The notes under the pieces are model-generated. The model was not told the DNA's origin. It worked only from the letters and a program-made list of their open reading frames with translations, and searched no databases. Shown one piece after another: positions 27,203 through 43,043 of a stretch of 64,000 nt of DNA (position 1 is its first letter; every line of letters begins with the position of its first letter). The stretch spans positions 714,523 to 778,522 of the forward strand of contig CAVSKL010000001.1 in assembly GCA_963728475.1 (NCBI GenBank). The letters run 5' to 3'. The position numbers and the translations under genes are program-made. This DNA comes from Candidatus Eiseniibacteriota bacterium (GTDB lineage: Bacteria; Eisenbacteria; RBG-16-71-46; JABDJR01).

Positions 27203-27459
27203 CCGGGCCGGGATCCCAGGCGCGCCCTCGCTCGCCGGGCGCGGCGGCCCGGGATACCGGACCGCGCCGGGCTCAGCCTCCCTGATCCCCCGCGAGACGC
27301 GCCCCCTTTCCTTGTCCCGTCCGACCTCGTTTGATATTCTTCCGATCGGGCTGGTTCTTGCGGCTCGGACCCCCCCTCCGATCCCCCCGGGAAACCCGCC
27401 TTCTTCTCGCGGACCGGTTCGCGCCCAGGCTCAGATTCCCGGAAGAATAGGACGCCGGC

Positions 27460-28374
27460 ATGGCCGCCAACCCGCGACAATTCAAGACGCCGGATTCGGC
27501 GGAAGGGGGAACCGCGTCCCCGGCGGACCCCCTCCCCTTCGTCGGCGAGCCGGAGGCGGCCGCGCGCCCGCCGGGGAACCCCACCGGGACGGGGCTGACG
27601 GGCGTGGCAGGTGAACCGGCGGGGGGGACCGGGCCCGATGACGGTCCGGACCCGGATCGCGGGGCCGACGGGGAGGATCCGGTGGTGGAGCCCGCGGGGG
27701 CGCGGGGCCCGGAACGCTTCGCCGTCGCCGGCGACCCCTTGGCGGCGCTGGCCGCGTCTTGCTCCGGCGGGGCCTCGGACGGGGCGGCTCTGAGCGTCCT
27801 CTTCACGCCGTCCCGCTTCGAAAAGCGGGCCGAGGCGGCCTGCGCGAGCCTGGAGATCCCGGTCCACCTGCCCCTTCGCGCCGGGCGGGCGTCGAAGGCC
27901 GGGGTGCGCGCCGCGCTTCCCCTCTTTCCCGGATATCTCTTCGCGGTTCTCACCGCGGGCTCGCGGCGCCGGCTGGTGGAGCGCGCGCGGATCGCGCGAG
28001 TGATTCCGGTATCTCGTCCCGAGTTGCTCCTGACGGAACTCCGTCAGATTCACCGGGCGCTCACGGTGAAACCGGATCTGGAGGCGGCTCCCGCGCTGGC
28101 GCGCGGCCGTTGGGTCCGGGTGGCGAGCGGGCCGTTCTTTGGGCTCACGGGCGTGATCGCCGACCGGCGAATGGGCCAAGGCCGGCTCCGCCTGGTCCTG
28201 AACCTGTCGGAACTCGGCCGGGGGGTCCCGGTCGAGATCGATGCCGGCGCGGTGGAGCCGGCGACGACGCCGGCGGGATGGCGCGCGCCGGATGATTCGC
28301 GTGCGGGCCGGCGTCCGCGTGTCCGCCGCCGGCCCTGGATGTATGAAGGAGAGCGCCCGGCCGACCCGGCCTGA
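27460..28374 (+). CDS. NusG-family paralogue (NGN + KOW domains, UpxY/LoaP/RfaH-like specialised antiterminator)
   Basis: ALPLFPGYLFAVL (NGN hallmark) and GRWVRVASGPFFGLTGVIA (KOW). Long low-complexity N-terminal extension, so the real start may be later. Directly upstream of intI on the same strand. Confidence 0.55.
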   Translation: MAANPRQFKTPDSAEGGTASPADPLPFVGEPEAAARPPGNPTGTGLTGVAGEPAGGTGPDDGPDPDRGADGEDPVVEPAGARGPERFAVAGDPLAALAASCSGGASDGAALSVLFTPSRFEKRAEAACASLEIPVHLPLRAGRASKAGVRAALPLFPGYLFAVLTAGSRRRLVERARIARVIPVSRPELLLTELRQIHRALTVKPDLEAAPALARGRWVRVASGPFFGLTGVIADRRMGQGRLRLVLNLSELGRGVPVEIDAGAVEPATTPAGWRAPDDSRAGRRPRVRRRPWMYEGERPADPA

Positions 28375-28522
28375 GGTACCGCGGGGGCCGCCCCGCGACG
28401 CGCTCGGCCGCTCCTTCGGGCCTCGGAGGCTCCCGGTAACCGGCTTCCCGCCGGCGAAGGGGGCGAAGCCCGCCCGGCTCCCGGGCGGCGAACCCACCCC
28501 GTCCGGAGGCGCGGTTCCCTTG

Positions 28523-29554
28523 AACGGTTGGACGGATGCGGAGTTCGGGGTCGGTTCCGGCGGCGCGGGCCTGGCGCGGGAGCGCGGCGTGTGCCCGGCG
28601 CGGCCGCCCCGGTTGCTGGACCGGTTGAGTTCGCTGATCCGGGCGCGGCACTACAGCCCCAGCACCGAGAAGGCCTACGTGGGCTGGGTGAGGCGGTTCG
28701 TGCTCTTTCACGGCAAGCGCCACCCGGACGCGATGGGCGAGGCGGAGGTGACCGCGTTCCTGTCGGACCTGGCGGCGCGGCGGAAGGTGAGCGCCTCGAC
28801 CCAGAACCAGGCCCTGAGCGCGATCCTGTTCCTGTACCGCGAGGTGCTGGGCCGCGACCTGGCCGGGGCGGACGGGATCGTCCGCGCCAAGCGCCCGGTG
28901 CGGGTCCCGGTGGTGCTGACCCGGGACGAGGTTTAGGCGATCCTGGGCCACATCCACGGGACGCCGTGGTTGATGGCGTCGCTCCTCTACGGGGCGGGGT
29001 TGCGGCTCATGGAGTGCTGCCGGCTCCGGGTCAAGGATGTGGACTTCGGCCGGGGCGAGATCCGGGTGCGCGACGGCAAAGGGCAGAAGGACCGGGTGAC
29101 GTTGTTGCCGCGCGCGGTCCGGGGCCCTTTGGCCGCCCACCTGGACCGGGTGCGGCGGATGCACCGGGACGACCTGCGGGCGGGCCGGGGCGGGGTGGAG
29201 CTGCCGAGGGCGCTGGCCCGTAAGTACACCGGGGCGTCGCGGGAGTGGGCCTGGCAGTGGGTGTTCCCGGCCACGCGGCCGTACGTCGATCAAGGGACCG
29301 GCGAGGAGCGCCGGCACCACCTGCACGAGTCGGTGGTGCAGCGGGCGGTGAAGGAGGCGGTGCGCCGGGCCGGGGTGCCCAAGCCGGCGACGTCGCATAG
29401 CTTGCGGCACTCCTTCGCCACCCATCTGCTGGAGGCGGGCTACGACATCCGGACCATCCAGGAGCTGTTGGGTCATAGCGACGTGAGCACGACCATGATC
29501 TACACGCACGTTCTCAACCGAGGCGGCCGCGGGGTGCGGAGCCCGCTGGATTGA
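28523..29554 (+). pseudogene. intI: Integron integrase intI (tyrosine recombinase with IntI-specific insertion), interrupted by an in-frame TAG at 28934-28936
   Basis: HYSPSTEKAYVGWVRRFVLFHGKRHP...[44 protein letters not shown]...[23 protein letters not shown]...[42 protein letters not shown]...GVRSPLD matches IntI1 blocks, including the IntI-only ALERKYP...WxWVF segment. The two ORFs 28241..28936 and 28970..29554 are in the same frame. The start is uncertain (TTG 28523, GTG 28589 or ATG 28343). Confidence 0.8.
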
Positions 29555-29590
29555 CCCGCCGGGCGACGTGAATAGGGACCCGGGTCCCAC

Positions 29591-29621
29591 CGGCCCGGGC
29601 CGGGCCGGGCCGGGCCGGGCC
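29591..29621. repeat. (GGGCC)6 pentanucleotide repeat immediately downstream of intI
   Basis: Seen directly. Confidence 0.8.
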
Positions 29622-29699
29622 GTTCGACTCTCGCACGGATCCAGGCAGGTTCGGTTCGGGCGCGATTCTTCCCGGCCCGGCCGTCGCACCGCCCCGCCT

Positions 29700-29917
29700 C
29701 GCTCGCTCGGCTATCTGGGCTATCCGCCCCCGAGGCTAACCGACATGTGTATCCGCCTATCCGGTGTCAACCCGCGGCCTATCCCGTCGCCCTCTCCGGC
29801 GCGATCTCGCGTATCATGGGGCGGGCTCGCGGGTTCGGCGCCGGCCACCGGCGGAGCTACACCGCCGCCAGCCACCACGGCCCGCGGCCTATTCCGGTCA
29901 GATACTTCCTGTTAGCC
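29700..29917 (+). other. Putative attI site with direct repeats and GTTAGCC crossover box
   Basis: About five GCTATCC/CCTATCC direct repeats, two of them in a 15-bp CCCGCGGCCTATYCC form (29773-29787 and 29882-29896). GTTAGCC at 29911-29917 lies 22 bp before the RBS (GGAGG) of the first cassette ORF. Confidence 0.5.
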
Positions 29918-29939
29918 CGAGCGTGGAAGGAGGCAAGAG

Positions 29940-30257
29940 ATGAAAGGCAGGGTAGTTGTTGCTAGCCTGCTTGCGTGCCCTTTGCTGTTGGGCTGTGGGA
30001 ACAACCCCGTGTCATCCTCTACATCTGCCGACATCGTCAATCACACGGGCACAGTGCGACAGATCGGCAGCGTCGGCTATGCCATCGACGATGACGCCGA
30101 GTCCAGTGAGCGATTCGCACCGAGCAACCTGCCTGACTCGTTCAAGAGGGACGGGGTAAGAGTCCTGTTCAGCGGCAGGAGAGGCGAGATACCTCCCAAC
30201 GTGCGCATGTGGGGAACGCCGCTGGAGTTGACGTCGATTCAGGCAGATATCCGCTAG
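29940..30257 (+). CDS. Cassette ORF: small lipoprotein (hypothetical)
   Basis: 105 aa with lipobox LLLGCG and a strong RBS. The stop lies just before the GGCTAAC of the following attC. Confidence 0.5.
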   Translation: MKGRVVVASLLACPLLLGCGNNPVSSSTSADIVNHTGTVRQIGSVGYAIDDDAESSERFAPSNLPDSFKRDGVRVLFSGRRGEIPPNVRMWGTPLELTSIQADIR

Positions 30258-30262
30258 CGCCG

Positions 30263-30364
30263 GGCTAACCGGCCGCTACAGCCGCCGCCCGCTCCTGGGG
30301 AGTAGGATAGGGCTTTGAAGGACGTCGGTCGTCGCGGGCGCGGCTGACCGGCAGCACGTTAGCC
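30263..30364 (+). other. attC recombination site (cassette 1)
   Basis: GGCTAAC...(imperfect stems CAGCCGCCGCCCGC/CGGGCGCGGCTG)...GTTAGCC. The ends are complementary and there are extrahelical mismatches in the stems. Confidence 0.6.
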
Positions 30365-30403
30365 CGATAGACTTCACAAACTGCTACCTTCTGTGGTAAC
30401 GTC

Positions 30404-30604
30404 TTGGTCATGGGGAAGATCCGCCGGGGGAACTACGTGTTCGTGTTCTGGACCGGGGATCACTCGCCCAGACATGTACACGTGTACCGCAATTCCCGAC
30501 TTGTAGTTAAGTGGGATCTGGATAGTGACTTAGAGATGCAAGGCAAAGCGACCCGCCAGATCAGGCGCCTCATTGCGGAGCTGAAAGCCGAGGGCAAGCT
30601 GTGA
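30404..30604 (+). CDS. DUF4160 family protein
   Basis: 66 aa, GNYVFVFWTGDHSPRHVHV motif. 4-bp overlap with the next ORF, the usual DUF4160/DUF2442 pair. Confidence 0.6.
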   Translation: MVMGKIRRGNYVFVFWTGDHSPRHVHVYRNSRLVVKWDLDSDLEMQGKATRQIRRLIAELKAEGKL

Positions 30605-31071
30605 AGATCACCCGAGTTACCGCAAACAACCGAAAGAAGGTCTTTGAAGTGGCCACGCGGAGTGGTCTGTTCCTTTTTCCCTACGTGGAGGCGGATCCTT
30701 CTCCTTCGCCTTCCGACCGCGTGCAAGAGGTCAGCCCAGACAAGGAGATTGCCCGGGAAGGCTTCACCTACACCCTTGAATCCGGTCGTGAAGGCACCGT
30801 CCACATCGATCACGTGCTCGAGTACAACCAGGACCCCAACTATCTCGCGGACATGCTCCTTTACAACCTGACGGTTGAAGCCCGGAAGCGGGTCGAGCAA
30901 TCCGAGCTAAGCACACGAGAGATCATTCGGAGGCTAGGGACTTCAGCCACCCAGTTCTACCGCCTCCTAGACCAGACGAACTACTCCAAGTCCCTGAAGC
31001 AGTTGGTGGCGTTACTGACCATCCTCGGCTGTGAGGTGGATCTGGTCGTTAGGCAGAAGCGCACTGCATGA
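30601..31071 (+). CDS. DUF2442-like protein with C-terminal HTH-like region
   Basis: 156 aa. Partner position to DUF4160. The TREIIRRLGTSATQFYRLL segment looks like an HTH. Confidence 0.45.
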   Translation: MKITRVTANNRKKVFEVATRSGLFLFPYVEADPSPSPSDRVQEVSPDKEIAREGFTYTLESGREGTVHIDHVLEYNQDPNYLADMLLYNLTVEARKRVEQSELSTREIIRRLGTSATQFYRLLDQTNYSKSLKQLVALLTILGCEVDLVVRQKRTA

Positions 31072-31078
31072 CAGTGCG

Positions 31079-31210
31079 GGCTAACATGGGGTTGAACCTG
31101 ACAAGCCAACCTGTCACGGGCTTGGCTGTGCGGTGCTTCGGCAGAATCCGGATGGCGGCGCGGGCCAAGCCCGCGCCAGCTTGCTTTGCAGGTTAACCTG
31201 ATCGTTGGCC
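31079..31210 (+). other. attC recombination site (long, about 132 bp; family A)
   Basis: GGCTAAC...GGTTGAACCTGACAAGCCAAC...GGCCAAGCCCGCGCC...TTGCAGGTTAACCTG...GTTGGCC. Near-identical in its ends to the attC at 35094-35226. Confidence 0.7.
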
Positions 31211-31545
31211 AGTAGGACGGTCCCTTTTCTCGCTCTTGTCTGGTGCTGACCTAGAAGCGGTTTGTTGGCCTTGGACGCTTTCACCTTCGGTTCGCCGGGG
31301 TCGCTTCGAGCGCGGCTGATCCACAGGCGCCCCGCAGGTGCTTTCCAGGGACCAGTTGCTCTAGAATACCGAGTCGCTGTCTCGTCGGATCGTCGGCCCT
31401 GCTCCGCTGAGACGCCGTGCCTGCCGCTGGGATGCTAACGGGCGCTTCGACACGATCCGGGCGGGCGGCTTCGTCCGCTCGGTTGCGGCGGTCGCTTCCT
31501 GTGGCTACGGTCGGCACCGAATGTGCCGGTCCTGCCATTGGCCTC

Positions 31546-31637
31546 AGCCCAACAGTGGCGGTGTAGCCGACGCCATTGGGGCGGCTCAGCCCGGTCGGCG
31601 GCTTTTCAACACGGCGCGGCTAACCGCCAGCGTTGGG
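31546..31637 (+). other. attC recombination site bounding an ORF-less cassette (31205-31631)
   Basis: GCCCAAC + GTGGCGGTGTAGCCGACGCC ... GGCGCGGCTAACCGCCAGC + GTTGGGC. The outer boxes are perfectly complementary and the inner stems match in 18 of 20 positions. Confidence 0.6.
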
Positions 31638-31666
31638 CACCGAACGACGGGTAGGGAGGTCTGCCC

Positions 31667-32470
31667 ATGGAAAACAGACAAGTTTCCGATACCTGGGAGC
31701 GTGGGAACCCCTATGAACGGTATGTCGGCCGGTGGAGCCGTCAGGTTGCGCCGCCGTTCCTCTCGTGGTTGAGCATTCCGGCCAGTCGGAGGTGGCTCGA
31801 CGTGGGGTGCGGCACGGGAGCGCTATGCGCGGCCATCGCGGACCGCTGCTCGCCTGCCTCGGTCGCCGGCGTCGAGCCTTCCGAGGAATTTCTCAAGACC
31901 GCGAGGGAAAATCTCGCCGACCGGGTGGCGCTTCACCAAGGCAGCGCAACGGCAATCCCGCTTGGTGAGGCGTCAGTCGACGTGGTGGTCTCGGGACTGG
32001 TCCTGAACTTCGTTCCGGATCAGCAGGCCGCCCTGACCGAGATGGCCCGGGTAACCGGCAAGGGGGGCACGATTGCAGCCTACGTCTGGGATTACGCCGG
32101 AAAGATGGAGCTAATGCGATACTTCTGGGACGCGGCAGTCGAGCTCGATCCGAGCGCCGCGAAGCTGGACGAGGGTCCCCGTTTCCCATTGTGTCGCCCG
32201 GAGGCACTCGAGAAGCTCTTCACCAATGCCGGCCTGAAAGGCGTGGAGGTGAAACCCATCGACATACCAACTCGGTTTACGAGTTTCGATGACTACTGGC
32301 AGCCCTTCCTCGGCGGCCAGGGTCCGGCCCCCGCCTACGCCATGTCGCTTGATGAATCCGTGAGAGCGGGCCTTCGCGATCGCATTCGCAAGTTCCTGCC
32401 GACAGCGGCAGATGGCTCGATCTCATTGATTGCGCGTGCTTGGGCGGCTCGCGCAACCGTTGCAATGTAA
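31667..32470 (+). CDS. Class I SAM-dependent methyltransferase
   Basis: LDVGCGTGA motif I and DVVVSGLVLNFV motif II. RBS GGGAGG. Confidence 0.65.
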   Translation: MENRQVSDTWERGNPYERYVGRWSRQVAPPFLSWLSIPASRRWLDVGCGTGALCAAIADRCSPASVAGVEPSEEFLKTARENLADRVALHQGSATAIPLGEASVDVVVSGLVLNFVPDQQAALTEMARVTGKGGTIAAYVWDYAGKMELMRYFWDAAVELDPSAAKLDEGPRFPLCRPEALEKLFTNAGLKGVEVKPIDIPTRFTSFDDYWQPFLGGQGPAPAYAMSLDESVRAGLRDRIRKFLPTAADGSISLIARAWAARATVAM

Positions 32471-32475
32471 GCAGT

Positions 32476-32562
32476 GCCCAACCCTTTGTTGCTGCGGACG
32501 GGCTGCCAGCGTCGTGCCAGTGTGACCGTCATCGTGGCCCGCCGCAGAACGACACGTTATGC
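32476..32562 (+). other. attC recombination site (short)
   Basis: GCCCAAC ... TTGTTGCTGCGGACGGGC / GCCCGCCGCAGAACGACAC ... GTTATGC. Confidence 0.5.
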
Positions 32563-32612
32563 CGCCCAGGCTGCCTGATGCTCGAGGTGGCGAGTTGATG
32601 GGAGGCTACCTG

Positions 32613-33719
32613 ATGAAGCCGATTCTATTGACCGCCGTGGCCCTTGCAGCGGCGGTAATCGGAACGATCACTGGGGAGAGCGCCCACTCGGTCTCATTGC
32701 GAGTCGTGCGGATCGGTGAGATGTCAGTGGATCGGGCCGCCCACCAAGCCACGCTCCTGGACAACGGCCAAGTTCTGATCACTGGCGGTTGTGCCGGGCG
32801 CGGCTGCGATCGCATCCTCGACTCGGTGGAGCTCTACGACCCTGAGGCCCGATCCTTTACGTCCGTAGCTCCGATGACGATCCCGCGAGCCAGCCACGCG
32901 GCGGTAGCCCTCCCGGATGGCCGGGTCCTCGTATCAGGCGGTTGGACGGGTCAGCGTGTGACCGCCAGTGCGGAAATCTACGATCCAAGGGCCGACCGCT
33001 GGACGGTGGTGGGGGACATGACGCAGGCACGGGCGAGCCATATCGCGGTGCCTCTGGGCAGCGGGAAGGTACTCATGGTGGGTGGCGGCGAGGGCGGGCT
33101 GGGTGATCTAGCGTCTGTAGAGGTGTTTGATCCCGCCACATCCCACTTCTCTGCTATGGGCAGGATGCGGACCAATCACTACCTGGCAACTCGGTTGACG
33201 GACGGTCGGGTTCTGATGACCGGAGGGCAGAACGCTCAAGGCGAGGTCCTGGCGTCGGCGGAGATCTTTGATCCCGTCACCGGCAAGTCAGAGCCCACGG
33301 GCAGCATGGCCGTGGCGCGTGTCAAGCATGCGGCGGCGCTACTTCCCGATGGAAGGGTCCTGATCATTGGTGGGTCCGACACCCGCGGTTACGCCGCGCG
33401 ATTTGCGAGCACAGAGATCTATGACCCTGCTACCGGCAAGTTCTCGCTCGGGCCTGACATGCAGTGGGGCCGTCACAAGATCCGTGACGCGGTCGCCGGA
33501 CTATCCTCCGGTGGTGTTGTCGTTGCGGGCGGCGCGTCTCGGCCGGAGCTGTACGATTCCGCCGAGAGCGTGTTCATTCCGGTCGAAGGCCAATTGAGCG
33601 GACCGCTGATGTTCGCAACCGCGACCCACCTCACTAGTGGAGAGGTGCTGGTCCTTGGCGGGTATGACGATCGCACGCAGTCGTCTGCCGGTGCTTGGCT
33701 GGTCGGGCCGCTGCGCTGA
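32613..33719 (+). CDS. Secreted Kelch-repeat beta-propeller protein
   Basis: Signal peptide MKPILLTAVALAAAVIG. Six or more repeats of RxxHxAxxLxDGRVLxxGG. Confidence 0.6.
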   Translation: MKPILLTAVALAAAVIGTITGESAHSVSLRVVRIGEMSVDRAAHQATLLDNGQVLITGGCAGRGCDRILDSVELYDPEARSFTSVAPMTIPRASHAAVALPDGRVLVSGGWTGQRVTASAEIYDPRADRWTVVGDMTQARASHIAVPLGSGKVLMVGGGEGGLGDLASVEVFDPATSHFSAMGRMRTNHYLATRLTDGRVLMTGGQNAQGEVLASAEIFDPVTGKSEPTGSMAVARVKHAAALLPDGRVLIIGGSDTRGYAARFASTEIYDPATGKFSLGPDMQWGRHKIRDAVAGLSSGGVVVAGGASRPELYDSAESVFIPVEGQLSGPLMFATATHLTSGEVLVLGGYDDRTQSSAGAWLVGPLR

Positions 33720-33768
33720 GGTGCCTTCGCGCTCCGCAAACCTGGATTCAGCCGCCCAGTTCGGGGGC

Positions 33769-33835
33769 GGCATAACAGGCCGATGAAGCTGCCGATCGCC
33801 TGCGGCGCCCGCAGCTTATCGGCGGGGCGTTATCC
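33769..33835 (+). other. attC recombination site (short)
   Basis: GGCATAACAGGCCGATGAAGCTGCC ... GCAGCTTATCGGCGGGGCGTTATCC inverted repeat. Confidence 0.5.
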
Positions 33836-33902
33836 GGACCGAGTCAGAAGCAACGTCAGATTGAGCAAGCGATAACCGACCGCAACCGTCACAGGAGCAA
33901 CC

Positions 33903-34313
33903 ATGAGCGAGCAGTTCACGAAGTACGAACGAATCTGGATCGACGGCTTGAATCGAGGCGATGTCTCTATTGTTGATGATGTCTTCGAGCCAAATTGCGT
34001 CATTCACATCGCGGGAAGCCCGGAGCCGAATCTCCCCGTAAGTGGTTTCAAACAGATGATGGCCGGCCTTCTTGCGGCGTTTCCGGACATTCAGCTGACG
34101 ATCGAGGATCAGGTCGTTACGGCGGACAAGGTAGCCACGCGGTGGACGGGCGCTGGCACTCATACTGGACCGCTCGGCGACATCAAGCCAACGGGGCGAC
34201 GAATACGGATCGGCGGTCTGATCCTCGACCACGTGTCTGGGGGGCGCGTGGTCGAGCGTTGGGAGCAGTGGGACCAAGCTGGCATGTTGCAGCAGCTAGG
34301 TGTGCTCGGGTAA
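33903..34313 (+). CDS. SnoaL-like / NTF2-like predicted ester cyclase
   Basis: 136 aa with the typical ERIWIDGLNRGD...VIHIAG...RWTGAGTHTGPLG pattern. Confidence 0.55.
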   Translation: MSEQFTKYERIWIDGLNRGDVSIVDDVFEPNCVIHIAGSPEPNLPVSGFKQMMAGLLAAFPDIQLTIEDQVVTADKVATRWTGAGTHTGPLGDIKPTGRRIRIGGLILDHVSGGRVVERWEQWDQAGMLQQLGVLG

Positions 34314-34349
34314 ACGGGCAGCCGGATGCCGCTCCAAACAAAAATCGGA

Positions 34350-34443
34350 AGGGCCGGTCAACACCGCGCTGGGGCCGATGCCCTTGGCCGGCTCGCGTTG
34401 ACCGGCGGGTCCGCGCGCAGCGCGGCTCGGGGCGGTCGTTAGC
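34350..34443 (+). other. attC-like inverted repeat (boundaries uncertain)
   Basis: GCCGGTCAACACCGCG ... CGCGTTGACCGGC perfect inverted repeat, then GTTAGCT at 34437. Confidence 0.35.
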
Positions 34444-34465
34444 TGAACTCGGGTCTTTGTTCTCG

Positions 34466-34497
34466 CTTGACTGAGAGTATAACCTAGGTTATACTCT
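34466..34497 (+). promoter_or_regulatory. Sigma70-like promoter (TTGACT-17-TATACT) overlapping a perfect 26-bp palindrome (GAGAGTATAACCTAGGTTATACTCTC): probable autoregulated TA operator, near-leaderless antitoxin mRNA
   Basis: Seen directly. The -10 box ends 9 bp before the antitoxin ATG at 34504. Confidence 0.45.
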
Positions 34498-34503
34498 CAT
34501 TTC

Positions 34504-34746
34504 ATGAAGACAGCCATCTCCATTCCAGACCCTCTTTTCAAGGCTGCAGAGCACCTTGCTAGGCGCCTTGGAGTCTCTCGAAGCGAGCTGTATCAGCTCG
34601 CCGTTTCCCGGCTCCTGGACGACCATGATGACGAGGCGACAACGGACGCTCTAAACAAGCTCTACGGAGAGCACCCCGAACTCGCCAAGGTTGATCCAGT
34701 GCTCGATCAACTCCAGCTTGCTGCCTTGCCTAAGGACGACTGGTAG
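34504..34746 (+). CDS. Type II antitoxin (RHH/MazE-like)
   Basis: 80 aa, MKTAISIPDPLFKAAEHLARRLGVSRSELYQLAV. 1-bp overlap with the toxin gene. Confidence 0.6.
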   Translation: MKTAISIPDPLFKAAEHLARRLGVSRSELYQLAVSRLLDDHDDEATTDALNKLYGEHPELAKVDPVLDQLQLAALPKDDW

Positions 34747-35099
34747 TGCTCCGCGGGGAAGTCTGGTGGGCCAATCCGCCTGTCCCCGGGGGATCCGAAC
34801 CGGGCTATCGCCGGCCCGTTCTCGTCGTCTCCTCGGACAACTACAACCGTAGCTCCATCGCCACGGTGGTGGTAGCGGCCATTACTTCGAATGAAATCCT
34901 CGCCGGCGCTCCCGGGAACGTACGGATAACCAAACGACAGAGCGGTCTGCCCAAGGCGTCGGTAGTAAACGTGTCACAGCTCCTCACGGTCAGCAAGGAT
35001 GCGCTCGTTGAGCACGCCGGTATTCTCTCCGATTCGGTCATGAGCAACGTCAGCGCTGGTTTGGTACGCGTGCTTGGATTGCCGAGCATCCGCGGCTAA
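34746..35099 (+). CDS. mazF: Type II toxin, MazF/PemK family endoribonuclease
   Basis: GEVWWANP...RPVLVVS...TVVVAAITS is the PemK/MazF signature. The TAA stop is embedded in the attC R'' box GGCTAAC. Confidence 0.7.
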   Translation: MLRGEVWWANPPVPGGSEPGYRRPVLVVSSDNYNRSSIATVVVAAITSNEILAGAPGNVRITKRQSGLPKASVVNVSQLLTVSKDALVEHAGILSDSVMSNVSAGLVRVLGLPSIRG

Positions 35100-35226
35100 C
35101 AGCAGGTTGAACCTGACAAGCCAAGCTGCCACGGTCTTGGCCGTAGGGTGCCTCGAATAGATCCGGCAAGTTTTCTCGGGCCAAGCCCGCGCCAAGTTGC
35201 CTTGCAAGTTATCCTGGGTGTTAGCC
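35094..35226 (+). other. attC recombination site (long; family A, paralogue of the site at 31079-31210)
   Basis: GGCTAAC...GGTTGAACCTGACAAGCCAAG...GGCCAAGCCCGCGCC...GTTAGCC. Confidence 0.7.
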
Positions 35227-35255
35227 GGCCACAGCCCATGACAGGAGGACGAGGA

Positions 35256-36323
35256 ATGGTGAGGGAATACCGGACCATGAAGGCGGCGGTCTTCGTAGAG
35301 CCCGGCCGTATTGCTTTAGAAGACAGGCCTATTCCCGAGGTGGGGCCCCGCGACGCCCTACTTCGGGTAACGACCACGACGATCTGCGGAACTGACGTAC
35401 ACATCCTCAAGGGCGAGTATCCGGTTGCGCCAGGGCTGATCGTCGGTCATGAGCCCGTGGGCGTCATAGAGGAACTCGGCGCAGCGGTCTCGGGTTACAA
35501 GGTAGGTCAGCGCGTGATCGCGGGCGCCATCACTCCCTGCGGTCAGTGCTACCCGTGCCTCGGCGGGGACCAGGCTCAGTGCGGGGGCAGGGCCATGGGC
35601 GGCTGGCGGCTTGGCAACACCATCAACGGCTGTCAGGCCGAGTACGTCCTGATTCCCGATGCTACGGCAAACCTGGCGCCGATCCCCGACGGCCTGACCG
35701 ACGAGCAAGTGCTCATGTGCCCCGACATCATGAGCACCGGCTTTGGCGGCGCAGAAAGCGGCCGGATTAGGATCGGAGACACGGTCGCAGTGTTTGCGCA
35801 GGGGCCGATCGGGCTCTGCGCCACAGTGGGCGCGAGACTTTCCGGCGCGACCATGATCGTCGCCGTGGATGCCGTGCCCGAACGACTCGCCATGTCCAAG
35901 GCGCTGGGCGCTGACCTCACGATCAATTACAAGGAGCGCGATCCGTTCGAGGCGATACAAGAGGCCACGGGTGGGCGGGGCGTGGACGTGGCCATCGAGG
36001 CCCTCGGCACGCAGGCGACGTTCGAGAACTGCCTGCGCGTGCTGCGGCCGGGCGGCACGCTCTCGAGCCTGGGGGTCTACTCGGGTAAGCTCACGTTGCC
36101 CCTAGACGCCTTTGCCGCGGGGCTTGGCGATCACACAGTCGTGACGACGCTGTGTCCAGGCGGGAAAGAGCGGATGCGCAGGCTGATGAACGTCCTGGCT
36201 TCTAAGCGCGCCGACCTGCGACCGCTCGTGACCCACCGGTTCCCGCTCGACCGGATCGAGGACGCATACGACCTGTTTGCGAGCCAGCGTGATGCGGTGC
36301 TCAAGATCGCCATCACACCATGA
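35256..36323 (+). CDS. Zn-dependent alcohol dehydrogenase family oxidoreductase
   Basis: ICGTDVH, GHEPVG and the GxGxxG Rossmann motif (VFAQGPIGL). RBS AGGAGGA. Confidence 0.7.
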   Translation: MVREYRTMKAAVFVEPGRIALEDRPIPEVGPRDALLRVTTTTICGTDVHILKGEYPVAPGLIVGHEPVGVIEELGAAVSGYKVGQRVIAGAITPCGQCYPCLGGDQAQCGGRAMGGWRLGNTINGCQAEYVLIPDATANLAPIPDGLTDEQVLMCPDIMSTGFGGAESGRIRIGDTVAVFAQGPIGLCATVGARLSGATMIVAVDAVPERLAMSKALGADLTINYKERDPFEAIQEATGGRGVDVAIEALGTQATFENCLRVLRPGGTLSSLGVYSGKLTLPLDAFAAGLGDHTVVTTLCPGGKERMRRLMNVLASKRADLRPLVTHRFPLDRIEDAYDLFASQRDAVLKIAITP

Positions 36324-36376
36324 CCAATGAAGCTATCACCAACCCTTGCTCAGTTCGCGCTGTTCTATGAGGAGCC

Positions 36377-36440
36377 GGCTAACCACAGCATGCGTCTGCC
36401 GGCGCTTCGCGCCGCCCCTGATGCTGGGCATCAGACCCCG
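36377..36440 (+). other. attC-like site, short family B, apparently degenerate R' box
   Basis: GGCTAAC CACAGCATGCG ... CCGGCGCTTCGCGCCGCC ... CTGATGCTGGGCATC. Shares its core with the sites at 40626 and 41319. Confidence 0.4.
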
Positions 36441-36458
36441 CAAGACGAGAGGCCGACC

Positions 36459-37325
36459 ATGACTCACTTGGACAGGGCAAGACAATACCTTGATGCGTGG
36501 AACGCCCGCGATGCCGGCGCGATTGTCAGGACGTTTGCCGCTGAAGGTACCTACCGCGACCCAACAACCGGCGCGCTCTCTGGCGATGCCATCGGCGCGA
36601 ATGCCCAGCGCTTGTGGAGCGCCTTTCCCGACCTCGCGTTCGACATCGCGAACGTAGTGGAGGTCGGCGCCGGCCGGGTGATAGCCGAGTGGATCATGAG
36701 GGGCACGAATACCGGGGTGTTCCAGGGCCTGCCAGCGACCGGCCGGCCGATTTCGGTCCCGGGCGTCGACGTGATCGAGCTCGGGGCAGACGGGATTACT
36801 ACCGTCACCGGGTACTTCGATAGCCGCGCCATTCCAGAGCGGTTGGGTCTTCAAGTGCTGATCCAGCCGTTCTCGGTTGGACCGTTTGCCTTCGGCAATT
36901 CGACGGCGGTGCAATCTGGCAAGAAAACGAAGCCCGGGGCGTTCGCCATCACGACGATCTGGAACCGCGACGTCCAGACAGAGGACGTCCGCGCTTTGAC
37001 TCGGTCGACGGCAACGGAGATGCTGAAGATGGATGGCTTCATCGGCGCGTCCTTCTTTCGGATCGGTGGTCGCGGCGTCACGATTTCGGCCTGGGAAGAG
37101 CCTGAGCAGGTGAAGCAGCTGCGGAGAGGAGGCACGCATTCCGAGGCAATGCGCAGATTCTGGACGGAGTTGGGTGATGCGGCCTTTACGAGCGTGTGGA
37201 TTCCGGATCACGTCAATCCGTTGTGGGTGCGTTGCGCTGTGTGCCGCAAGATGAAGGACTATAAGGTGCAGGCGGGTGTATGCAGCTGCGGCGAACCACT
37301 ACCCGATGCACCCGCTTATTTTTGA
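36459..37325 (+). CDS. SnoaL-like domain protein fused to a C-terminal domain of unknown function
   Basis: N-terminal DRARQYLDAWNARD...TYRDPTTG is the SnoaL/ester-cyclase pattern. The C-terminal 150 aa are unassigned, with a Cys pair CAVC...CSCG. Confidence 0.45.
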   Translation: MTHLDRARQYLDAWNARDAGAIVRTFAAEGTYRDPTTGALSGDAIGANAQRLWSAFPDLAFDIANVVEVGAGRVIAEWIMRGTNTGVFQGLPATGRPISVPGVDVIELGADGITTVTGYFDSRAIPERLGLQVLIQPFSVGPFAFGNSTAVQSGKKTKPGAFAITTIWNRDVQTEDVRALTRSTATEMLKMDGFIGASFFRIGGRGVTISAWEEPEQVKQLRRGGTHSEAMRRFWTELGDAAFTSVWIPDHVNPLWVRCAVCRKMKDYKVQAGVCSCGEPLPDAPAYF

Positions 37326-37410
37326 TGTTGGCTCAGCGAGGTGTAGCAGCCGGTTCCCGCGGACGGTCCGCCGCGCGGCCCCTTCGCGGAACCGGGAACA
37401 TTGGCCTGCG
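37325..37410 (+). other. attC-like inverted repeat
   Basis: CAGCCGGTTCCCGCGG / CCGCGGAACCGGG stems, GTTGGCT ... ATTGGCC ends. Confidence 0.35.
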
Positions 37411-37723
37411 CCGAAAGGAGCAAGGAGCTGAACTGGGAAGCCGCCGGAGCGCTCGGACAAACCGATCGCAGCGGCAGTGCGCGCTTAGTCGCTGAAAGAC
37501 GCCTTGGATCCCGATGCGTGGCGCGCTTGGGAACATCGACTGCTGAAGCACGCCCCGGCGCGAAGGAACCGATCAGGAGCGTCGACGGCTGCCTAACATG
37601 CGCATGATGCTGGCGAGCGCTGTCGCTGGCCGTTGATTTGTTCGCTTGGCATTGAGACGAGAGGGAGTAGAGGGTACGCGCGCCTGTCCAAGTAGAGCGC
37701 TCCCAGCATATCTTCTGTTCATA

Positions 37724-37999
37724 ATGGCCGGTTTCCTGGGTACCGGTTGTACAGCTTCTCGCGAACGACCGCCCTCGTTCTGGGGCGACCCGGCCGTGGC
37801 GACAATTCCAAAGGAACTCCTCGGGCGCTGGGTCCGCTCGTCCGAGGAAAGACATCGGCGATGTCATGGTGTATCGCCCTTGGGCTACCCGTTACCCCCG
37901 TCCCGGTGGCGCGATAGCTTCGAGATTCTTACCGACGGTCGCGTAACTCTGACGACCCTGGGTTCGTTCGATGGACCCGAAGCTATGACGATGCAATAG
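37724..37999 (+). CDS. Small lipoprotein-like ORF, with an in-frame TAG then about 40 more codons to 38119
   Basis: MAGFLGTGCTAS lipobox-like start in a lower-GC segment. Possibly a pseudogene. Confidence 0.3.
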   Translation: MAGFLGTGCTASRERPPSFWGDPAVATIPKELLGRWVRSSEERHRRCHGVSPLGYPLPPSRWRDSFEILTDGRVTLTTLGSFDGPEAMTMQ

Positions 38000-38178
38000 G
38001 AACTTCTTCCCGGGGACGCCATGCGGTTTGCCACATCTGATGGGGCCGAATACCAGAGATTCAGGATTGTCGCGCTGAGCCGCGATCGCCTCACGGTCAC
38101 CCAGATTCGCGTCGGATAAGGCCGGAGTTCAACCTGGCCCACTGCCAGTGTCTCACGACCATAGGGAGAGAGTTCGCC

Positions 38179-38928
38179 ATGGACATTCCAAGGATCTTCA
38201 ACATCACCGAGAGTGCTCATCGCATTCACAACCCGTTCACACCCGAAGCACTCGCTACTCTCGGCGCGGCGTTGCGCCTGGAGCCGGGGACCCGTGTCCT
38301 CGACCTCGGCAGCGGCTCGGGCGAGATGCTGTGCACCTGGGCACGGGATTACGGAATCATTGGCACTGGTATCGACATGAGCCAATTGTTCTCCGATCAA
38401 GCGCAGCGCCGCGCTGAGGAACTCAGTGTCCCCGGCCACGTCGAGTTCATCCACGGCGACGCTGCCGGCTACATAGCCACCGAAAGGGTCGGTGTGGCTG
38501 CCTGTCTCGGCGCCACGTGGATCGGCGGGGGAGTCGCCGGCACCATCGAACTTCTGGCGAAGAGCCTCCGCAGGGGAGGGATCATCCTTATCGGCGAGCC
38601 CTACTGGTTGCATTTACCACCGACAGAAGACGTTGCCAAAGGTTGCCATGCCGGTTCGATAGCCGAATTTCTTGTGCTTTCAGAATTGCTCGCCTCTTTC
38701 GGAAGACTCGACTACGACGTCGTGGAAATGGTTCTCGCAGACCAAGCGGGCTGGGACAGGTACGAGGCAGCCAAGTGGCTCACTATGCGCCGATGGCTCG
38801 AAGTCAATCTTGACGACGAGTTAGCCAAAGATGTTCGAGCCAACCTGACCTCGGAACCCGTCCGCTACGCCACGTACACGCGTGAGTATTTGGGCTGGGG
38901 GGTATTCGCGTTGATGGCGCGGTATTGA
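38179..38928 (+). CDS. Class I SAM-dependent methyltransferase
   Basis: VLDLGSGSGEM motif I and GGIILIGEPYW motif. Confidence 0.65.
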   Translation: MDIPRIFNITESAHRIHNPFTPEALATLGAALRLEPGTRVLDLGSGSGEMLCTWARDYGIIGTGIDMSQLFSDQAQRRAEELSVPGHVEFIHGDAAGYIATERVGVAACLGATWIGGGVAGTIELLAKSLRRGGIILIGEPYWLHLPPTEDVAKGCHAGSIAEFLVLSELLASFGRLDYDVVEMVLADQAGWDRYEAAKWLTMRRWLEVNLDDELAKDVRANLTSEPVRYATYTREYLGWGVFALMARY

Positions 38929-39116
38929 AACGATTGCCGAACGACTCGGAACGTGGTGAACCAATCATGTCTGACAGACCGTCGGAGCAGACGGCTCGGC
39001 GTTGTCACGCCGCCGGCAGAAGCCGGGGCCACGCCAAGACCGCCCGCTGCTCAACCCTGACGTGAGGCACACCTCTTGAAATGTCGATGGTTGACCCGGG
39101 TGCTATTCTTTCCGGG

Positions 39117-39203
39117 TGAAGGTCCGGGACGTGATCAAGCTGCTTGAGCGGGATGGCTGGAAGTTGCCCGCTCCCGCCGCCGGGCGGAGAACGGGACTTT
39201 AAA
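39117..39203 (+). pseudogene. HicA-like toxin N-terminal remnant (28 codons)
   Basis: Translation VKVRDVIKLLERDGWKL matches the conserved N-terminus of YcfA/HicA mRNA interferases. Stop after 28 codons, no partner hicB. Confidence 0.45.
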
Positions 39204-39248
39204 ATAGTGCTGCCGCTCGTGGTCGCGGCTGAGCGGCAATCGTTAGGC
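39150..39248 (+). other. attC-like site ending in a perfect GTTAGGC core
   Basis: GCCGCTCGTGGTCGCGGCTGAGCGGC palindrome followed by GTTAGGC at 39242-39248. Confidence 0.4.
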
Positions 39249-39324
39249 TTCACGACCGCTGCCGAACGTGACCGGGCCGCCCCTTCGGGGCCCAGAAGCC
39301 CATCGAAACCCGAAGGGAGATGAC

Positions 39325-39765
39325 ATGAAGGGCGAGAAGATCTACGGGTACGACGTCGACATTACGGGATTGACGGACTACGGCATTACCCTGGACGCAA
39401 TCCTCTCCGGGCAACGACAGGTCCCACCGCAGGGGGCTAGGATCGATGTAGCGTTCGATGGCCAAGCCATTGGCCGGCTGGCCGGGCGGGTCCGAGGGGT
39501 CGATTACCTCCGCATTCGCCAGGACGGGCGCATCGACCTTGATATTCGGGCGACGATCGAAACGGAGGCTGGGCATCGAATCGCGCTGTCAGCCGGCGGC
39601 GTGGCGGTGCTGCGTCCGACAGAGCCGATCGCTGACCTTTCGGAGAACGTCAGTTTGAATACCGCCGCCGAAGAGTACGCATGGGTCCGAGCGAACCAGA
39701 TCTGGGGCGTGGGTACCGTGAACCTGGCTGCCGGCAAGGTCCACATCGACGGATTCATGCAATAG
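39325..39765 (+). CDS. DUF3237-like protein
   Basis: 146 aa. The Gly/Asp-rich beta-rich pattern (RIDVAFDGQAIGRLAGRVRGVDYLRIRQDGRIDLDIRATIETEAGHRI) resembles DUF3237. Confidence 0.45.
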   Translation: MKGEKIYGYDVDITGLTDYGITLDAILSGQRQVPPQGARIDVAFDGQAIGRLAGRVRGVDYLRIRQDGRIDLDIRATIETEAGHRIALSAGGVAVLRPTEPIADLSENVSLNTAAEEYAWVRANQIWGVGTVNLAAGKVHIDGFMQ

Positions 39766-40189
39766 ACGCTATTCACTGCTGGTTCTGACTGCACGGCTTG
39801 CGTTCGCGCTGGAGCCGTCGGCGCGGTTAGGATCGAGAGCGCTGCGGCTCAGCGCGCACGTTGAGTGCGTCTTTGGAGGACCGGTGGAATTCGACTTCCA
39901 GCCATGGGCAGCTCGCCCGCGAAATCCCCGGCCCCGCCCTGAACCTAGCCTTCTTTCTGGGCGCACTCGTGGCCTGGATGACATCGATGCTACCCGAAGT
40001 CGTGGAGCGGACGCATGTGCGGTGCCGTCGAGAACCGAATCACCGCCGCTGCCGGGGTGGGATTCTCGCTCGTTTTGACTTGGATAGCGCCGGCATTCCG
40101 TGGCAGTGCCCTCTCTGCAGAGCCGACGGGCGCAACTCCGGCCGGGAGGTGCTCACCGGAAACGCCAGGCGAACTTAAGGAGGGACGTC

Positions 40190-40621
40190 TTGACAGACGA
40201 CAGATGGTCAGCGTCGCCAGTTCTCGGCGTCCGACAGGTGCGCCAAGCCGCCGAGTACTACCGCGACGTCCTTGGATTCAGTCTCGATCCGGTTGATGGC
40301 GTCTTTCAGCCTTCGCCGGACGAGCCTGACGGCGTCTACGCAGTAGTGAAGCGTCCGGGCGCATCGATCCACTTCCAAATACGTCGCGACCAAACTCAGC
40401 AACGGCAGCGACCGGCGTTTGAGCCCGACGCCTATGTGTATGTAAACGACGTGAACAGGCTGCATGCGGAGCTTAAGCGCCGTGGTGCGAAGTTCCAGGC
40501 GCCTCCGCGAATGGCGCCTCATGGGATTCGCGAGATGGTCGTCGAGGACTTGAACGGGTACCGGCTCGCGTTCGGCGAACTTCGGCCGGAGGCCAAGGGT
40601 GCAAACAGGCCGGGCGGCTGA
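40190..40621 (+). CDS. VOC family protein (glyoxalase/bleomycin-resistance fold)
   Basis: TTG start after AAGGAGGG. SPVLGVRQVRQAAEYYRDVLGF is the typical VOC N-terminal beta-alpha-beta motif. Confidence 0.55.
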   Translation: MTDDRWSASPVLGVRQVRQAAEYYRDVLGFSLDPVDGVFQPSPDEPDGVYAVVKRPGASIHFQIRRDQTQQRQRPAFEPDAYVYVNDVNRLHAELKRRGAKFQAPPRMAPHGIREMVVEDLNGYRLAFGELRPEAKGANRPGG

Positions 40622-40625
40622 TAGC

Positions 40626-40666
40626 GGCGTGCAACCCGCCGGCGCTTCGCGCCGCAGCTGGGTCGC
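40626..40666 (+). other. Degenerate attC-like remnant (family B core CCGGCGCTTCGCGCCGC)
   Basis: Shares an 18-bp core with the site at 36377. Confidence 0.3.
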
Positions 40667-40758
40667 CTCAGGACCGACCGGAAAGCGGCACCGCCTGGAC
40701 GCTACGCGAAAGGAGTGCGACGCCGCGCCAGATGCGGCGACGAAGGAGGACTGAACAC

Positions 40759-41097
40759 ATGTTCACCAAGAAGGGCGACGCGGCCGTCCTCGCCAAGCTC
40801 CGCGATGCCCCCGCCGAGTATCGGGAGATTGGAGAACGCCTGCATCGAATCATCCGGGAGAGCGTGCCGTCGCTCGAACCAATTGTACGATGGGGACTGT
40901 TCTTTTACGCTAAGGACGGCAAGGACATCTGCTACATCAAACTAGACAAGGATTTCATTGCATTCGGCTTCGGCGAAGTTGTGAACCCCGTTCGCGAGGT
41001 GGGCGCCAACATGCATCCGGTCGCGTGGACCCTGACCGCTCTGGACGCCGCAACGGAAGCCAGGATTAGTGCGCTCGTCAAGAAGGCCGTGGCCTGA
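40759..41097 (+). CDS. DUF1801-like small protein
   Basis: 112 aa. RBS GAAGGAGG. Confidence 0.35.
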   Translation: MFTKKGDAAVLAKLRDAPAEYREIGERLHRIIRESVPSLEPIVRWGLFFYAKDGKDICYIKLDKDFIAFGFGEVVNPVREVGANMHPVAWTLTALDAATEARISALVKKAVA

Positions 41098-41318
41098 GCA
41101 GATGAAGACCAGGAGGAGCGAGAACAAGGCGAAGGTACCGAACCCCCTTTCGGCCAAGTAGGCACCCGTCGCGACGGACAGCCACCCGGCCACTGAGGAA
41201 AGGAGTCGGCGCGTGAGGCCGGATCTGCAGTAACGGATACCGCTCGGATGATCAGGCTGGCCAAGGGAGAATGACCATAGCTGGGGCCGGTCCACCCAGG
41301 ATGTCCGATAGAGAAGCT

Positions 41319-41378
41319 GGCCAACAACAGCATGCGGCCGCCGGCGCAGCGCCCCGCCGCTGATGCTGAATGTTGGGC
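41319..41378 (+). other. attC recombination site (short, 60 bp, family B, canonical)
   Basis: GGCCAAC AACAGCATGCGG ... CTGATGCTGAAT GTTGGGC. R''/R' are perfectly complementary and L''/L' are complementary, immediately before an RBS and ATG. Confidence 0.65.
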
Positions 41379-41392
41379 GCCAGGGAGACATC

Positions 41393-41845
41393 ATGACGGT
41401 CAAGCGTATGGACAACGTCGGAATCGTGGTGGAAGACATCGATACCGCCATTGAGTTCTTCTCCGAACTTGGTCTCGACCTCGAGGGACGTGCCGCAGTT
41501 GAAGGAGACTGGGCGGATGGCGTCACCGGATTGCGCGACATGCGCGTCCCGATTGCGATGATGCGTACGCCGGACGGTCACGGCCGTCTGGAGTTGTCCC
41601 GCTTCCTCGCGCCGCCAGTGGTAGCGGATCACCGCGTTGCCCCAGTGAACGCTCTCGGCTACCTACGCGTCATGTTTACCGTGGAGGACATCGACGATAC
41701 GCTCGCACGGCTCACCAAACGCGGCGCGACGCTCGCCGGCGACGTGGTCCAGTACGGGGACACGTATCGGCTCTGCTACATCCGGGGTCCCGAAGGAATC
41801 CTCATCGGGCTTGCCCAAGAGCTCGGGCAAGAGACTTCCCGATGA
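41393..41845 (+). CDS. VOC family protein (glyoxalase I-like)
   Basis: MTVKRMDNVGIVVEDIDTAIEFFSELG is the canonical VOC start. Confidence 0.65.
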   Translation: MTVKRMDNVGIVVEDIDTAIEFFSELGLDLEGRAAVEGDWADGVTGLRDMRVPIAMMRTPDGHGRLELSRFLAPPVVADHRVAPVNALGYLRVMFTVEDIDDTLARLTKRGATLAGDVVQYGDTYRLCYIRGPEGILIGLAQELGQETSR

Positions 41846-42264
41846 ACAGCTTCGTCTCCTACCAGACCCTTATCGACCTGTGTCTCCGGGAATGTGCGGC
41901 GTCTGGACGCAAGTTGGCGATGAATTGGAACTCTGAGTCCCCCCAAGTCCCGTCGTGCATCTTGGCCACGGAAGCGGCACTCGACTTGATCGAGCACGCT
42001 GCAACGCAGCGGTGGTCGACTCGTTCATTTTGTTACATTACATTAGGGAACGACGCCTCCGTCAGGGTCGCCCTCACTGCTGGTATGTCGTTTTCAGGTG
42101 CGGGCATGGCCAGGCCGGGCGCCATGGCGGGGGTTGCTGACTCAGGCACGTCTGCTGTTGCCGTGCGGGTGAAGGAAGCGAATGGTTCGCTGCGCGCGCC
42201 CGTCGCAGTTACTCTGGCGCGTCCGCAGCCGGACGCTGCGGCGTCGGGGCCTCCTTTCCCATGA
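41842..42264 (+). CDS. Hypothetical protein
   Basis: ATGA overlaps at both ends (coupled to VOC and TspO). Low-GC 5' half. Confidence 0.3.
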   Translation: MNSFVSYQTLIDLCLRECAASGRKLAMNWNSESPQVPSCILATEAALDLIEHAATQRWSTRSFCYITLGNDASVRVALTAGMSFSGAGMARPGAMAGVADSGTSAVAVRVKEANGSLRAPVAVTLARPQPDAAASGPPFP

Positions 42265-42749: not shown

Positions 42750-43043
42750 GGTGCGCTTTGGCCGCCCCCCCTATCCTCCCCGCCCTACCTAGCGGGGACG
42801 CACCGGTCGGAGCTCGTGCTCGTCGCGAACGCTGCACGCCACAACACATTCCAGGGCGCAGGTTCCTTCATGACTGAAGACATCTCTCTGCGGGACGTGG
42901 TCGAGTGGCTATTCCGACGAAGGCGCCCACCTGGTCCGAAGGAAGGCGCCCACCCGTTCCGAGCGAAGACGCCCGCCGGTTCCGAAGGATTCCGGCCACC
43001 GTCGGAGCGTAGCGACGCGGGGATTGTGTCGTTGGGTTCCTCG

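Follow-up and report, generated by a model that had tools for sequence, protein, structure and literature searches.

A 64,000-nucleotide (nt) stretch of contig CAVSKL010000001.1 from a Candidatus Eiseniibacteriota bacterium (hereafter, the window) carries a gene for a specialized NusG-like protein immediately upstream of, and in the same orientation as, an integron integrase gene (intI) and its cassette array. Between the NusG-like gene (27460-28374, + strand) and intI lies a conserved non-coding element (28371-28480, +) that contains a 12-nt box (28461-28472, +) resembling the ops sites at which NusG paralogues load. The encoded protein belongs to the NusG family, the synteny is conserved, the integron-linked proteins form a single clade under purifying selection, and the box contains a covarying base pair and is common to relatives of the polysaccharide-operon type. 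By analogy with characterized NusG-paralogue systems, we propose with moderate confidence that a NusG paralogue and its ops-like box constitute a module that was captured by integrons and that would license transcription over long distances, through intI and the array.

The NusG-like gene encodes a protein of 304 amino acids that was assigned as a NusG paralogue (NusG_SP) from its open reading frame (ORF), fold, family and clade membership. GC content at third codon positions (GC3) in this frame was 0.73-0.93 from 27460 on, supporting coding from the first ATG. The Pfam NusG/NGN model (PF02357) matched residues 113-167 with 22.8 bits against a cut-off of 22.2, identifying an NGN domain. Pfam KOW scored 18.1 bits at residues 215-235, under its cut-off of 22.3, and reached 23.1 bits in a relative (L009); a KOW beta-barrel was recognized in the window protein from the strands of an AlphaFold2 (AF2) model and from profile alignment to the NusG C-terminal domain (CTD) structures 2kvq and 1nz9 (E 1e-7 to 1e-6). 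The AF2 model consists of an NGN domain at 110-202, of alpha/beta type and with a predicted local distance difference test (pLDDT) score of ~63-89, and a five-stranded beta KOW at 218-267, with residues 1-105 and 277-304 disordered and the tail basic. The best structural neighbors found by Foldseek were NusG and RfaH. When a profile of the clade was compared to solved structures, NusG chains were matched at E 3e-13 to 1e-9, among them 8f5g (E 3e-13; a "NusG-RNA complex" that we take to be a LoaP-RNA complex) and E. coli NusG (E 2.5e-10).

Models for named families all fell short of their cut-offs on the window protein. Housekeeping NusG (TIGR00922) gave 23.5 bits vs. a cut-off of 135.7, RfaH (TIGR01955) 23.3 vs. 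144.5 and LoaP (NF033641) 16 vs. 125, and the top NCBIfam model, UpxY (NF033644), gave 29.6 bits vs. 100 and thus missed the family threshold. The secE-nusG-rplKA surroundings were not seen at the locus, where the gene's neighbors are an ICMT-type methyltransferase, a Mem_trans permease and intI. The window ORF is a divergent, specialized NusG-family protein and not housekeeping NusG. An earlier sequence-only reading of this DNA had described just such a specialized paralogue, with NGN and KOW domains, co-oriented and ~150 bp before intI, and we found the gap from the NusG-like stop codon to the likely intI start (TTG at 28520, with GGAGG at 28505-28509) to be 145 nt. An Arg-rich C-terminal tail (GRRPWRVRRGR) was considered as an RNA-binding motif and rejected, since it is absent from L003, L099, L104, L112, P0147 and P0150; the idea is also undercut by the tail's overlap with nucleotide-level conservation at the 5' end of the element.

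Adjacency of a NusG-like gene and intI was sought in other genomes and found on at least eight contigs besides the window. The order NusG-like gene, box, intI is shared by the window and loci L002 (a Candidatus Eisenbacteria metagenome-assembled genome [MAG], CAVPCR010000001.1), L003, L089, L099, L104, L106/L111 and L112, and the genes 5' of the NusG-like gene are unrelated and different in every locus. Because the same order occurs on at least eight other contigs with unrelated upstream genes, the adjacency is not a product of chance. A search of 5.8 billion proteins returned few close relatives of the NusG-like protein, and a second, profile-based search raised their number to ~22. An exhaustive hidden Markov model search of 1.84 billion cluster representatives produced a distinct top group of ~19 representatives at 204 bits or more, below which lay 194 matches with E <= 1e-30 and 11,312 with E <= 1e-3. 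All members of the top group for which DNA context was obtained sit at integron platforms (these contexts leave out P0148, P0153, P0155 and P0160-P0173), and in most NusG-linked loci the intIs are 75-82% identical to one another.

In a neighbor-joining tree, the integron-linked NusG-like proteins formed one monophyletic clade (bootstrap 63/100). Its sister proteins (L009, L004, L005, L007, L069, and L080) head polysaccharide operons, and the wider paralogue family, in Planctomycetota, Acidobacteriota and Kiritimatiellia, likewise heads operons for polysaccharide biosynthesis. Pairwise ratios of nonsynonymous to synonymous substitution rates (dN/dS) within the clade were 0.33-0.57, with 0.79 for one very close pair, and 0.33-0.44 among L001, L090, and L088; the NusG-like gene is under purifying selection. 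Several copies may share a genome: three integron-type paralogues (P0002, P0007, and P0148) occur on the 1.54-Mb contig CAVPCR010000001.1 and two (the L112 copy and P0155) on the 852-kb ERZ25039600 contig_30918, and in one MAG two of the three NusG paralogues are at integron loci. As judged from these contexts, the gene appears to be inherited with the integron platform, within a small integron lineage of high-GC, Candidatus Eisenbacteria-type uncultured bacteria.

Alignments of 6-11 loci delimited the non-coding element. It opens with CUGAG-GGWACC, which starts just before the stop codon of the NusG-like gene, and continues with a variable hairpin region, a conserved hairpin and the 12-nt box. 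In the window the conserved hairpin (28431-28460) reads CCC-GGUAA-CCGGC..GCCGG-CGAAG-GGG, and its consensus over the aligned loci is CCC-GUAR-CCGG...CCGG-YGAA-GGG. The box (GGGCGAAGCCCG in the window; consensus GG(G/A)CGAAG(C/U)SYG, core GCGAAGC) is the most conserved block of the region between the two genes, 87-124 nt past the NusG-like stop codon and 33-73 nt ahead of the intI start. Its CGAAG is invariant in all 11 aligned integron-type sequences, and the flanking pair, G-C in six of the 11 and A-U in the other five, is never broken, a pattern matched by 1 of 500 shuffles. The core of the window and one subgroup, GCGAAGC, is identical to the opsE core of B. fragilis; the other subgroup has GACGAAGUC, in which the C-GAA-G turn is kept and the next pair is changed to A-T. 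GCGNAGC and GCGNNAGC are classic, extraordinarily stable mini-hairpins of single-stranded DNA (PMC13037366), a class to which the GCGAAGC core belongs. The sequence-only reading had pointed to 29555-29940 as the place to look for an ops-like motif; that interval, which is the attI region and is common to NusG-less integrons, did not yield one, and the motif it had anticipated is instead represented by the hairpin and box at 28431-28472.

A covariance model of the element (R1) found exactly one copy per integron-type locus at 52-68 bits, scores that follow by construction from training on these loci, and no further copy in the window. Rfam gave no family match anywhere in the window at gathering thresholds and nothing meaningful in 28200-28700 at E <= 10. 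A metagenome DNA scan that used the 3' half of the element as query gave 21 matches, four of which held the full element, in all four cases between a NusG-like gene and intI; the other 17 were rejected as chance matches in coding regions that lacked the 5' half. The E. coli-type ops, GGCGGTAGNNTG, was likewise rejected as a loading site, since its matches with one mismatch allowed were at chance level (4 vs. 5.3 expected), with none near the locus.

The box is not confined to integrons. In four cases, vs. 0.19 expected, it stands 7-75 nt past a NusG_SP gene at the head of a polysaccharide operon, and it reads GGACGAAGTCTGCCCG in L069 (10585-10600), GGGCGAAGCCTGCCCG in L080 (8517-8532; R1 score 26 bits, E 2e-4) and GGGCGGAGCCTGCCCG in L005/L006 (at ~6262 in L005). 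In Planctomycetaceae, Acidobacteriota and Phycisphaeraceae, GGRCG(A/G)AGYCTGCCCG closely follows NusG paralogue genes that lead polysaccharide operons. The box may be an undescribed ops of the whole paralogue family, including its polysaccharide-type members in Planctomycetota and Acidobacteriota.

Upstream of the NusG-like gene, ~120 nt 5' of its start codon, a promoter-like motif (27312-27340, +) combines a -35 of TTGTCC (27312-27317), a 17-nt spacer and an extended -10 of TGATATTCT (27332-27340). A motif of the form CTTG(N)C-N17-TG(R)TATCYT precedes the NusG-like genes of seven loci, and the same motif, as CCTTGGTC-N17-TTTGATATCCT, stands directly 5' of intI in the NusG-less integron L114. 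Since a strict sigma-70 scan recovered no promoter at 27312-27340, the assignment is made from conservation only.

In the mechanism we propose, transcription would start at this conserved site, and RNA polymerase leaving the paralogue gene would transcribe the conserved hairpin and then the box (GGRCGAAGYSYG). At the element the polymerase would pause, and the non-template strand of the box would fold into the very stable GCGAAGC mini-hairpin. There the paralogue would load onto the paused polymerase in place of housekeeping NusG, much as RfaH does at ops and UpxY at opsX. With the NusG site so occupied, the polymerase would be resistant to pausing and to Rho on its way across intI and attI and into the cassettes, which are promoterless. 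The steps that we infer are recruitment to the box, antitermination and the choice of the array as target. The scheme fits three properties of the locus. No terminator was found in a scan between the NusG-like gene and intI; no cassette promoter (Pc) was recognizable in the attI region by reading of the alignment; and the cassettes are foreign in composition, with a GC content of 59-65% vs. 70-78% in the flanks outside ~30-50 kb, so that the cassette run lies 8-15 points below host DNA. RfaH-type factors counter the silencing of xenogenes by NusG/Rho (PMC7593976), and a low-GC array is the kind of DNA that is silenced by Rho/NusG and rescued by such factors.

Variants of the locus bear on what the module acts upon. 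L001, a second locus in the same Eisenbacteria MAG as L002, has an intact NusG-like gene and the element, followed after ~75 nt by an attI region and attC-bounded cassettes, with no intI. In L090, a related locus from a different sample, intI is likewise absent downstream, and in the window the NusG-like ORF is intact although intI is interrupted. Together these three loci, in which intI is absent or interrupted and the paralogue intact, suggest that the role of the paralogue is not limited to the integrase and extends beyond it.

Several observations weigh against the proposed mechanism. The clade of integron-linked proteins has a bootstrap of only 63/100. Among close integrons, L113 (81% intI identity to the L002 query) carries the element in the intI leader with no NusG-like gene nearby, and L114, about as close (77%), has neither. 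A search with intI returned at least 8000 scored candidates, all with E <= 1e-40, the best 120 of which are 71-95% identical; many intIs are thus equally close, and our attempt to delimit a "NusG-type" integrase clade by intI identity failed. With only ~19 clade representatives against at least 8000 related intIs, the module is dispensable for this type of integron: within a far larger integron family, it is an optional insert in the transcription unit of intI. The large hairpin showed weak covariation, with only one pair bearing a double change, most pairs invariant and shuffles not exceeded, and its folding z-scores of 0.49 and -0.02 made it no more stable than shuffled sequence; we therefore dropped the claim that the large hairpin is a structured RNA. 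The box lies 3' of the paralogue gene, where the opsX of Bacteroides lies 5' of upxY, and its likeness to opsX spans only 7-9 nt. An insertion sequence (IS) element of the IS21 family within the array would block read-through to the distal cassettes. Lastly, the attC hairpins that the sequence-only reading had cast as terminators are reported not to terminate transcription in Vibrio arrays (bioRxiv 10.1101/2023.11.21.568050), and the attC sites here are without U-tracts and the region without terminator excess; if attC sites are non-terminating, they would not be the barrier that the factor has to overcome. The accepted problem for arrays is distance-dependent silencing from a single platform promoter, and the module could address that problem.

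The main rival to the antitermination of the whole array is that paralogue and element control the integrase only, the element acting in the leader, by pausing or attenuation, to set the level of intI expression while the cassettes are expressed independently. In other integrons intI is under LexA control. Here the box stands 33-73 nt 5' of the intI start in every locus with intI, L113, which has no NusG-like gene, retains the element in the leader of intI, and the promoter-like motif of the paralogue is the one found directly 5' of intI in L114. However, paralogue and box persist without intI in L001 (and probably in L090), the gene being intact and under selection, and in L001 they adjoin attI and cassettes; the window keeps its paralogue despite the interrupted intI; and relatives carry the same box ahead of long polysaccharide operons, a setting in which such factors are known to act in long-range processivity. 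Considering both sides, we regard control of intI alone as unlikely, although it is the alternative that best survives.

The same loci count against a role in recombination, in which uninterrupted, paralogue-driven transcription over attI and attC would expose or fold single-stranded sites and thereby modulate the excision and insertion of cassettes. In favor of such a role, the module is always directed through attI toward the array, and integron recombination uses folded, single-stranded attC (PMC5737381); nevertheless, the module is kept in the window and in L001, where the integrase is dead and absent, respectively, and no precedent is known. We consider this role improbable. A similarly small chance attaches to the idea that the element is a cis-regulatory RNA in its own right, be it a riboswitch, an attenuator or a small RNA, and the paralogue has another target or none. 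At 100-150 nt with hairpin potential, and with a copy in the paralogue-free L113, the element could pass for one, but it has no Rfam match, weak covariation and no stability above that of shuffled sequence, all four full metagenome copies lie between a NusG-like gene and intI, and the box recurs after NusG_SP genes at integron-free loci.

Coincidental chromosomal context, which the sequence-only reading had kept as an equal option, here an integron landing beside an operon head that already carried a NusG paralogue, has in its favor that the closest non-integron relatives head polysaccharide operons, and it is very improbable in view of the at least eight other contigs with different flanks, the monophyly of the proteins, the conserved spacing of box and intI, the two or three copies per genome (in one genome with two at integron loci) and protein identities of 45-60%, which exclude a single duplicated or mis-assembled region. 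That reading had also reckoned with the gene being retained at its locus in relatives without the integron; what we found is that the gene moves with integrons. As for the origin of the module, we tentatively entertain, as a possibility we hold with less confidence than antitermination itself, that it originated at the head of a polysaccharide operon, where it was captured, and that the integron is now a single antiterminated unit of >10 kb.

The locus itself is an integron, with an IntI-type recombinase, an attI and attC-bounded cassettes. The integrase gene (28520-29554, +) matches TIGR02249 in two parts, N-terminal at 128.6 bits and C-terminal at 315.8 bits (cut-off 265), and an in-frame TAG at 28934-28936 interrupts it. 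The sequence-only reading had placed intI correctly and overlooked this stop. The window intI shares 75-80% identity with the intact intIs of L002, L003, and L089, and the TAG falls at a variable position, occupied by L, E or A in relatives. The window intI is probably an inactive pseudogene and the array sedentary, though the TAG could be a base-call error.

Downstream of intI, the attI region (29700-29917, +) holds repeated GCTATCC-type motifs, TGTGTATCCG and a crossover of the form ATACT-N4-G|TTAGCC (GTTAGCC at 29911-29917). It is conserved in six integrons, with the NusG-like gene present or not, and in L001 directly follows the box. The attI regions of the window, L002, L003 and L112-L114 share GCTATCC-like repeats, TGTGTATCCGGATA and an ATACT 4-5 nt ahead of the G|TT crossover, and these common motifs are candidate IntI binding sites of the integron family. 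Beyond attI, a run of ~15 cassettes (29918-42750, +; ~13 kb) follows, whose ORFs are all on the + strand up to ~42750, which bears out the earlier description of the array as co-oriented with intI. Heuristic detection of imperfect palindromes (R'' RYYYAAC ... R' GTTRRRY) gave at least seven strong attC-like sites between 30263 and 41378 (30263-30364, 31079-31210, 31547-31638, 34309-34403, 35094-35226, 38955-39096, and 41319-41378).

The cassettes encode DUF4160, methyltransferases, Kelch, SnoaL, RHH/PemK toxin-antitoxin, Zn-ADH, glyoxalases and TspO. Two of them are two-gene cassettes of the toxin-antitoxin type on the + strand, one at 30404-31071 (DUF4160 and a partner) and one at 34504-35099 (RHH antitoxin and PemK/MazF toxin). 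Toxin-antitoxin cassettes are typical stabilizers of sedentary arrays. The IS21-family element (43044-45538, - strand) is inserted in the array and comprises an IstA-like transposase (43976-45538) and an IstB ATPase (43044-43982); its GC3 is ~0.9, unlike that of the cassettes. Just past it, at 45612-45743, are four 22-nt tandem units, GGTGGGCGSCTTCSNTCGGAAC. Distal to the IS21 element, a cassette-like ORF (47227-47787, +) matches the rifampin ADP-ribosyltransferase Arr-ms at 161 bits, a resistance-type gene in an environmental chromosomal array.

Related loci supplied further observations. In L001, two copies of a ~310-bp cassette without an ORF, each with a terminal attC, directly follow attI (11225-11850), and the array further down contains a group II intron reverse transcriptase (RVT_1 and GIIM) and several IS elements. 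In the NusG-less L113, a near-perfect palindrome, CTACTGATTCAGTAG, lies 5' of the element at ~7640-7660 and could be an operator for intI, possibly a LexA-type site.

Full-text literature searches combining integron with NusG, RfaH, UpxY, LoaP or antitermination, and Eisenbacteria with integron, returned no description of this arrangement, in agreement with the sequence-only reading, which knew of no NusG-integron coupling; nor is an integron among the contexts in a NusG review of paralogue contexts. Control by NusG paralogues and ops is known, as are integrons; it is their combination, and a box common to the wider paralogue family, that appear undescribed. In the standard integron model there is one platform promoter and cassette expression fades with distance from it, and the expression of large chromosomal arrays is debated. 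A dedicated elongation factor that is inherited, together with its loading site, as part of the platform would add a new layer to integron regulation. The known targets of NusG paralogues are capsule, lipopolysaccharide (LPS), pilus, toxin and antibiotic operons, and integrons would be a new class among them. On the reading that the module was captured, and given that a genome can carry two or three such paralogues, each array may own its elongation switch, as in UpxY-style locus selection, and such a switch could select the stockpile of captured genes to be expressed and perhaps the one to be made recombinogenic. The material for testing this is at hand in a 12-nt box with a defined mini-hairpin and in natural controls without intI, without the paralogue and without both.

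Among known systems, the closest parallel is that of B. fragilis, in which UpxY paralogues are recruited at an opsX of ~40 bp, in which a pause hairpin in the nascent RNA precedes a hairpin of the non-template DNA, 5'-YGCGNAGCR, as in opsE (CTGCGAAGCATA) and opsA (CCGCGTAGCGCA) (PMC11685472). Here too a locus-specific paralogue is encoded in cis and leads the unit that it would control, several paralogues occur per genome, and in the candidate recruitment site a hairpin is followed by a GCGNAGC-type mini-hairpin box near the first start codon, with the core of opsE itself; UpxY is also the best NCBIfam model, and the nearest relatives of the clade head polysaccharide operons. The differences are that the window box is 3' of the paralogue gene rather than in its leader and is flanked by bases other than Y/R, that the locus has no UpxZ-like ORF, that the next unit consists of intI, attI and cassettes and not of a biosynthetic operon, and that the phylum is another and the UpxY score (29.6 bits) well under its cut-off of 100. 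RfaH, a factor of Proteobacteria, uses GCGGTAGC within GGCGGTAGCGTG in E. coli (PMC11685472). It is a NusG paralogue that rescues long, horizontally acquired operons from Rho/NusG and loads at a 12-nt pause site through the GCGGTAGC mini-hairpin of the non-template strand, and in these respects it resembles the system proposed here. However, RfaH is encoded away from its targets whereas the window paralogue is in cis, GGCGGTAGNNTG is not found near the window locus, and the CTD of the window protein is predicted to be a beta-barrel KOW where that of RfaH is an autoinhibited alpha-hairpin. LoaP of Firmicutes and TaA of Myxococcus are likewise NusG paralogues that adjoin long accessory operons, but their targets are antibiotic gene clusters, and LoaP recognizes a hairpin in the nascent RNA and acts at intrinsic terminators.

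On the integron side, transcription of intI toward the cassettes is known from Treponema (PMC3607928). Integrons of the Treponema denticola type share with the window the atypical co-orientation of intI and array, an attI downstream of intI and a chromosomal, sedentary array, yet belong to another integrase clade and other hosts and are not known to carry an elongation factor or ops-like element. With classical integrons the window shares cassettes that are promoterless, orientation-specific and dependent on upstream transcription. Classical integrons rely on Pc, with distance-dependent silencing and LexA control of intI, whereas the platform described here has no recognizable Pc in attI and carries a trans-acting elongation factor together with its candidate loading site.

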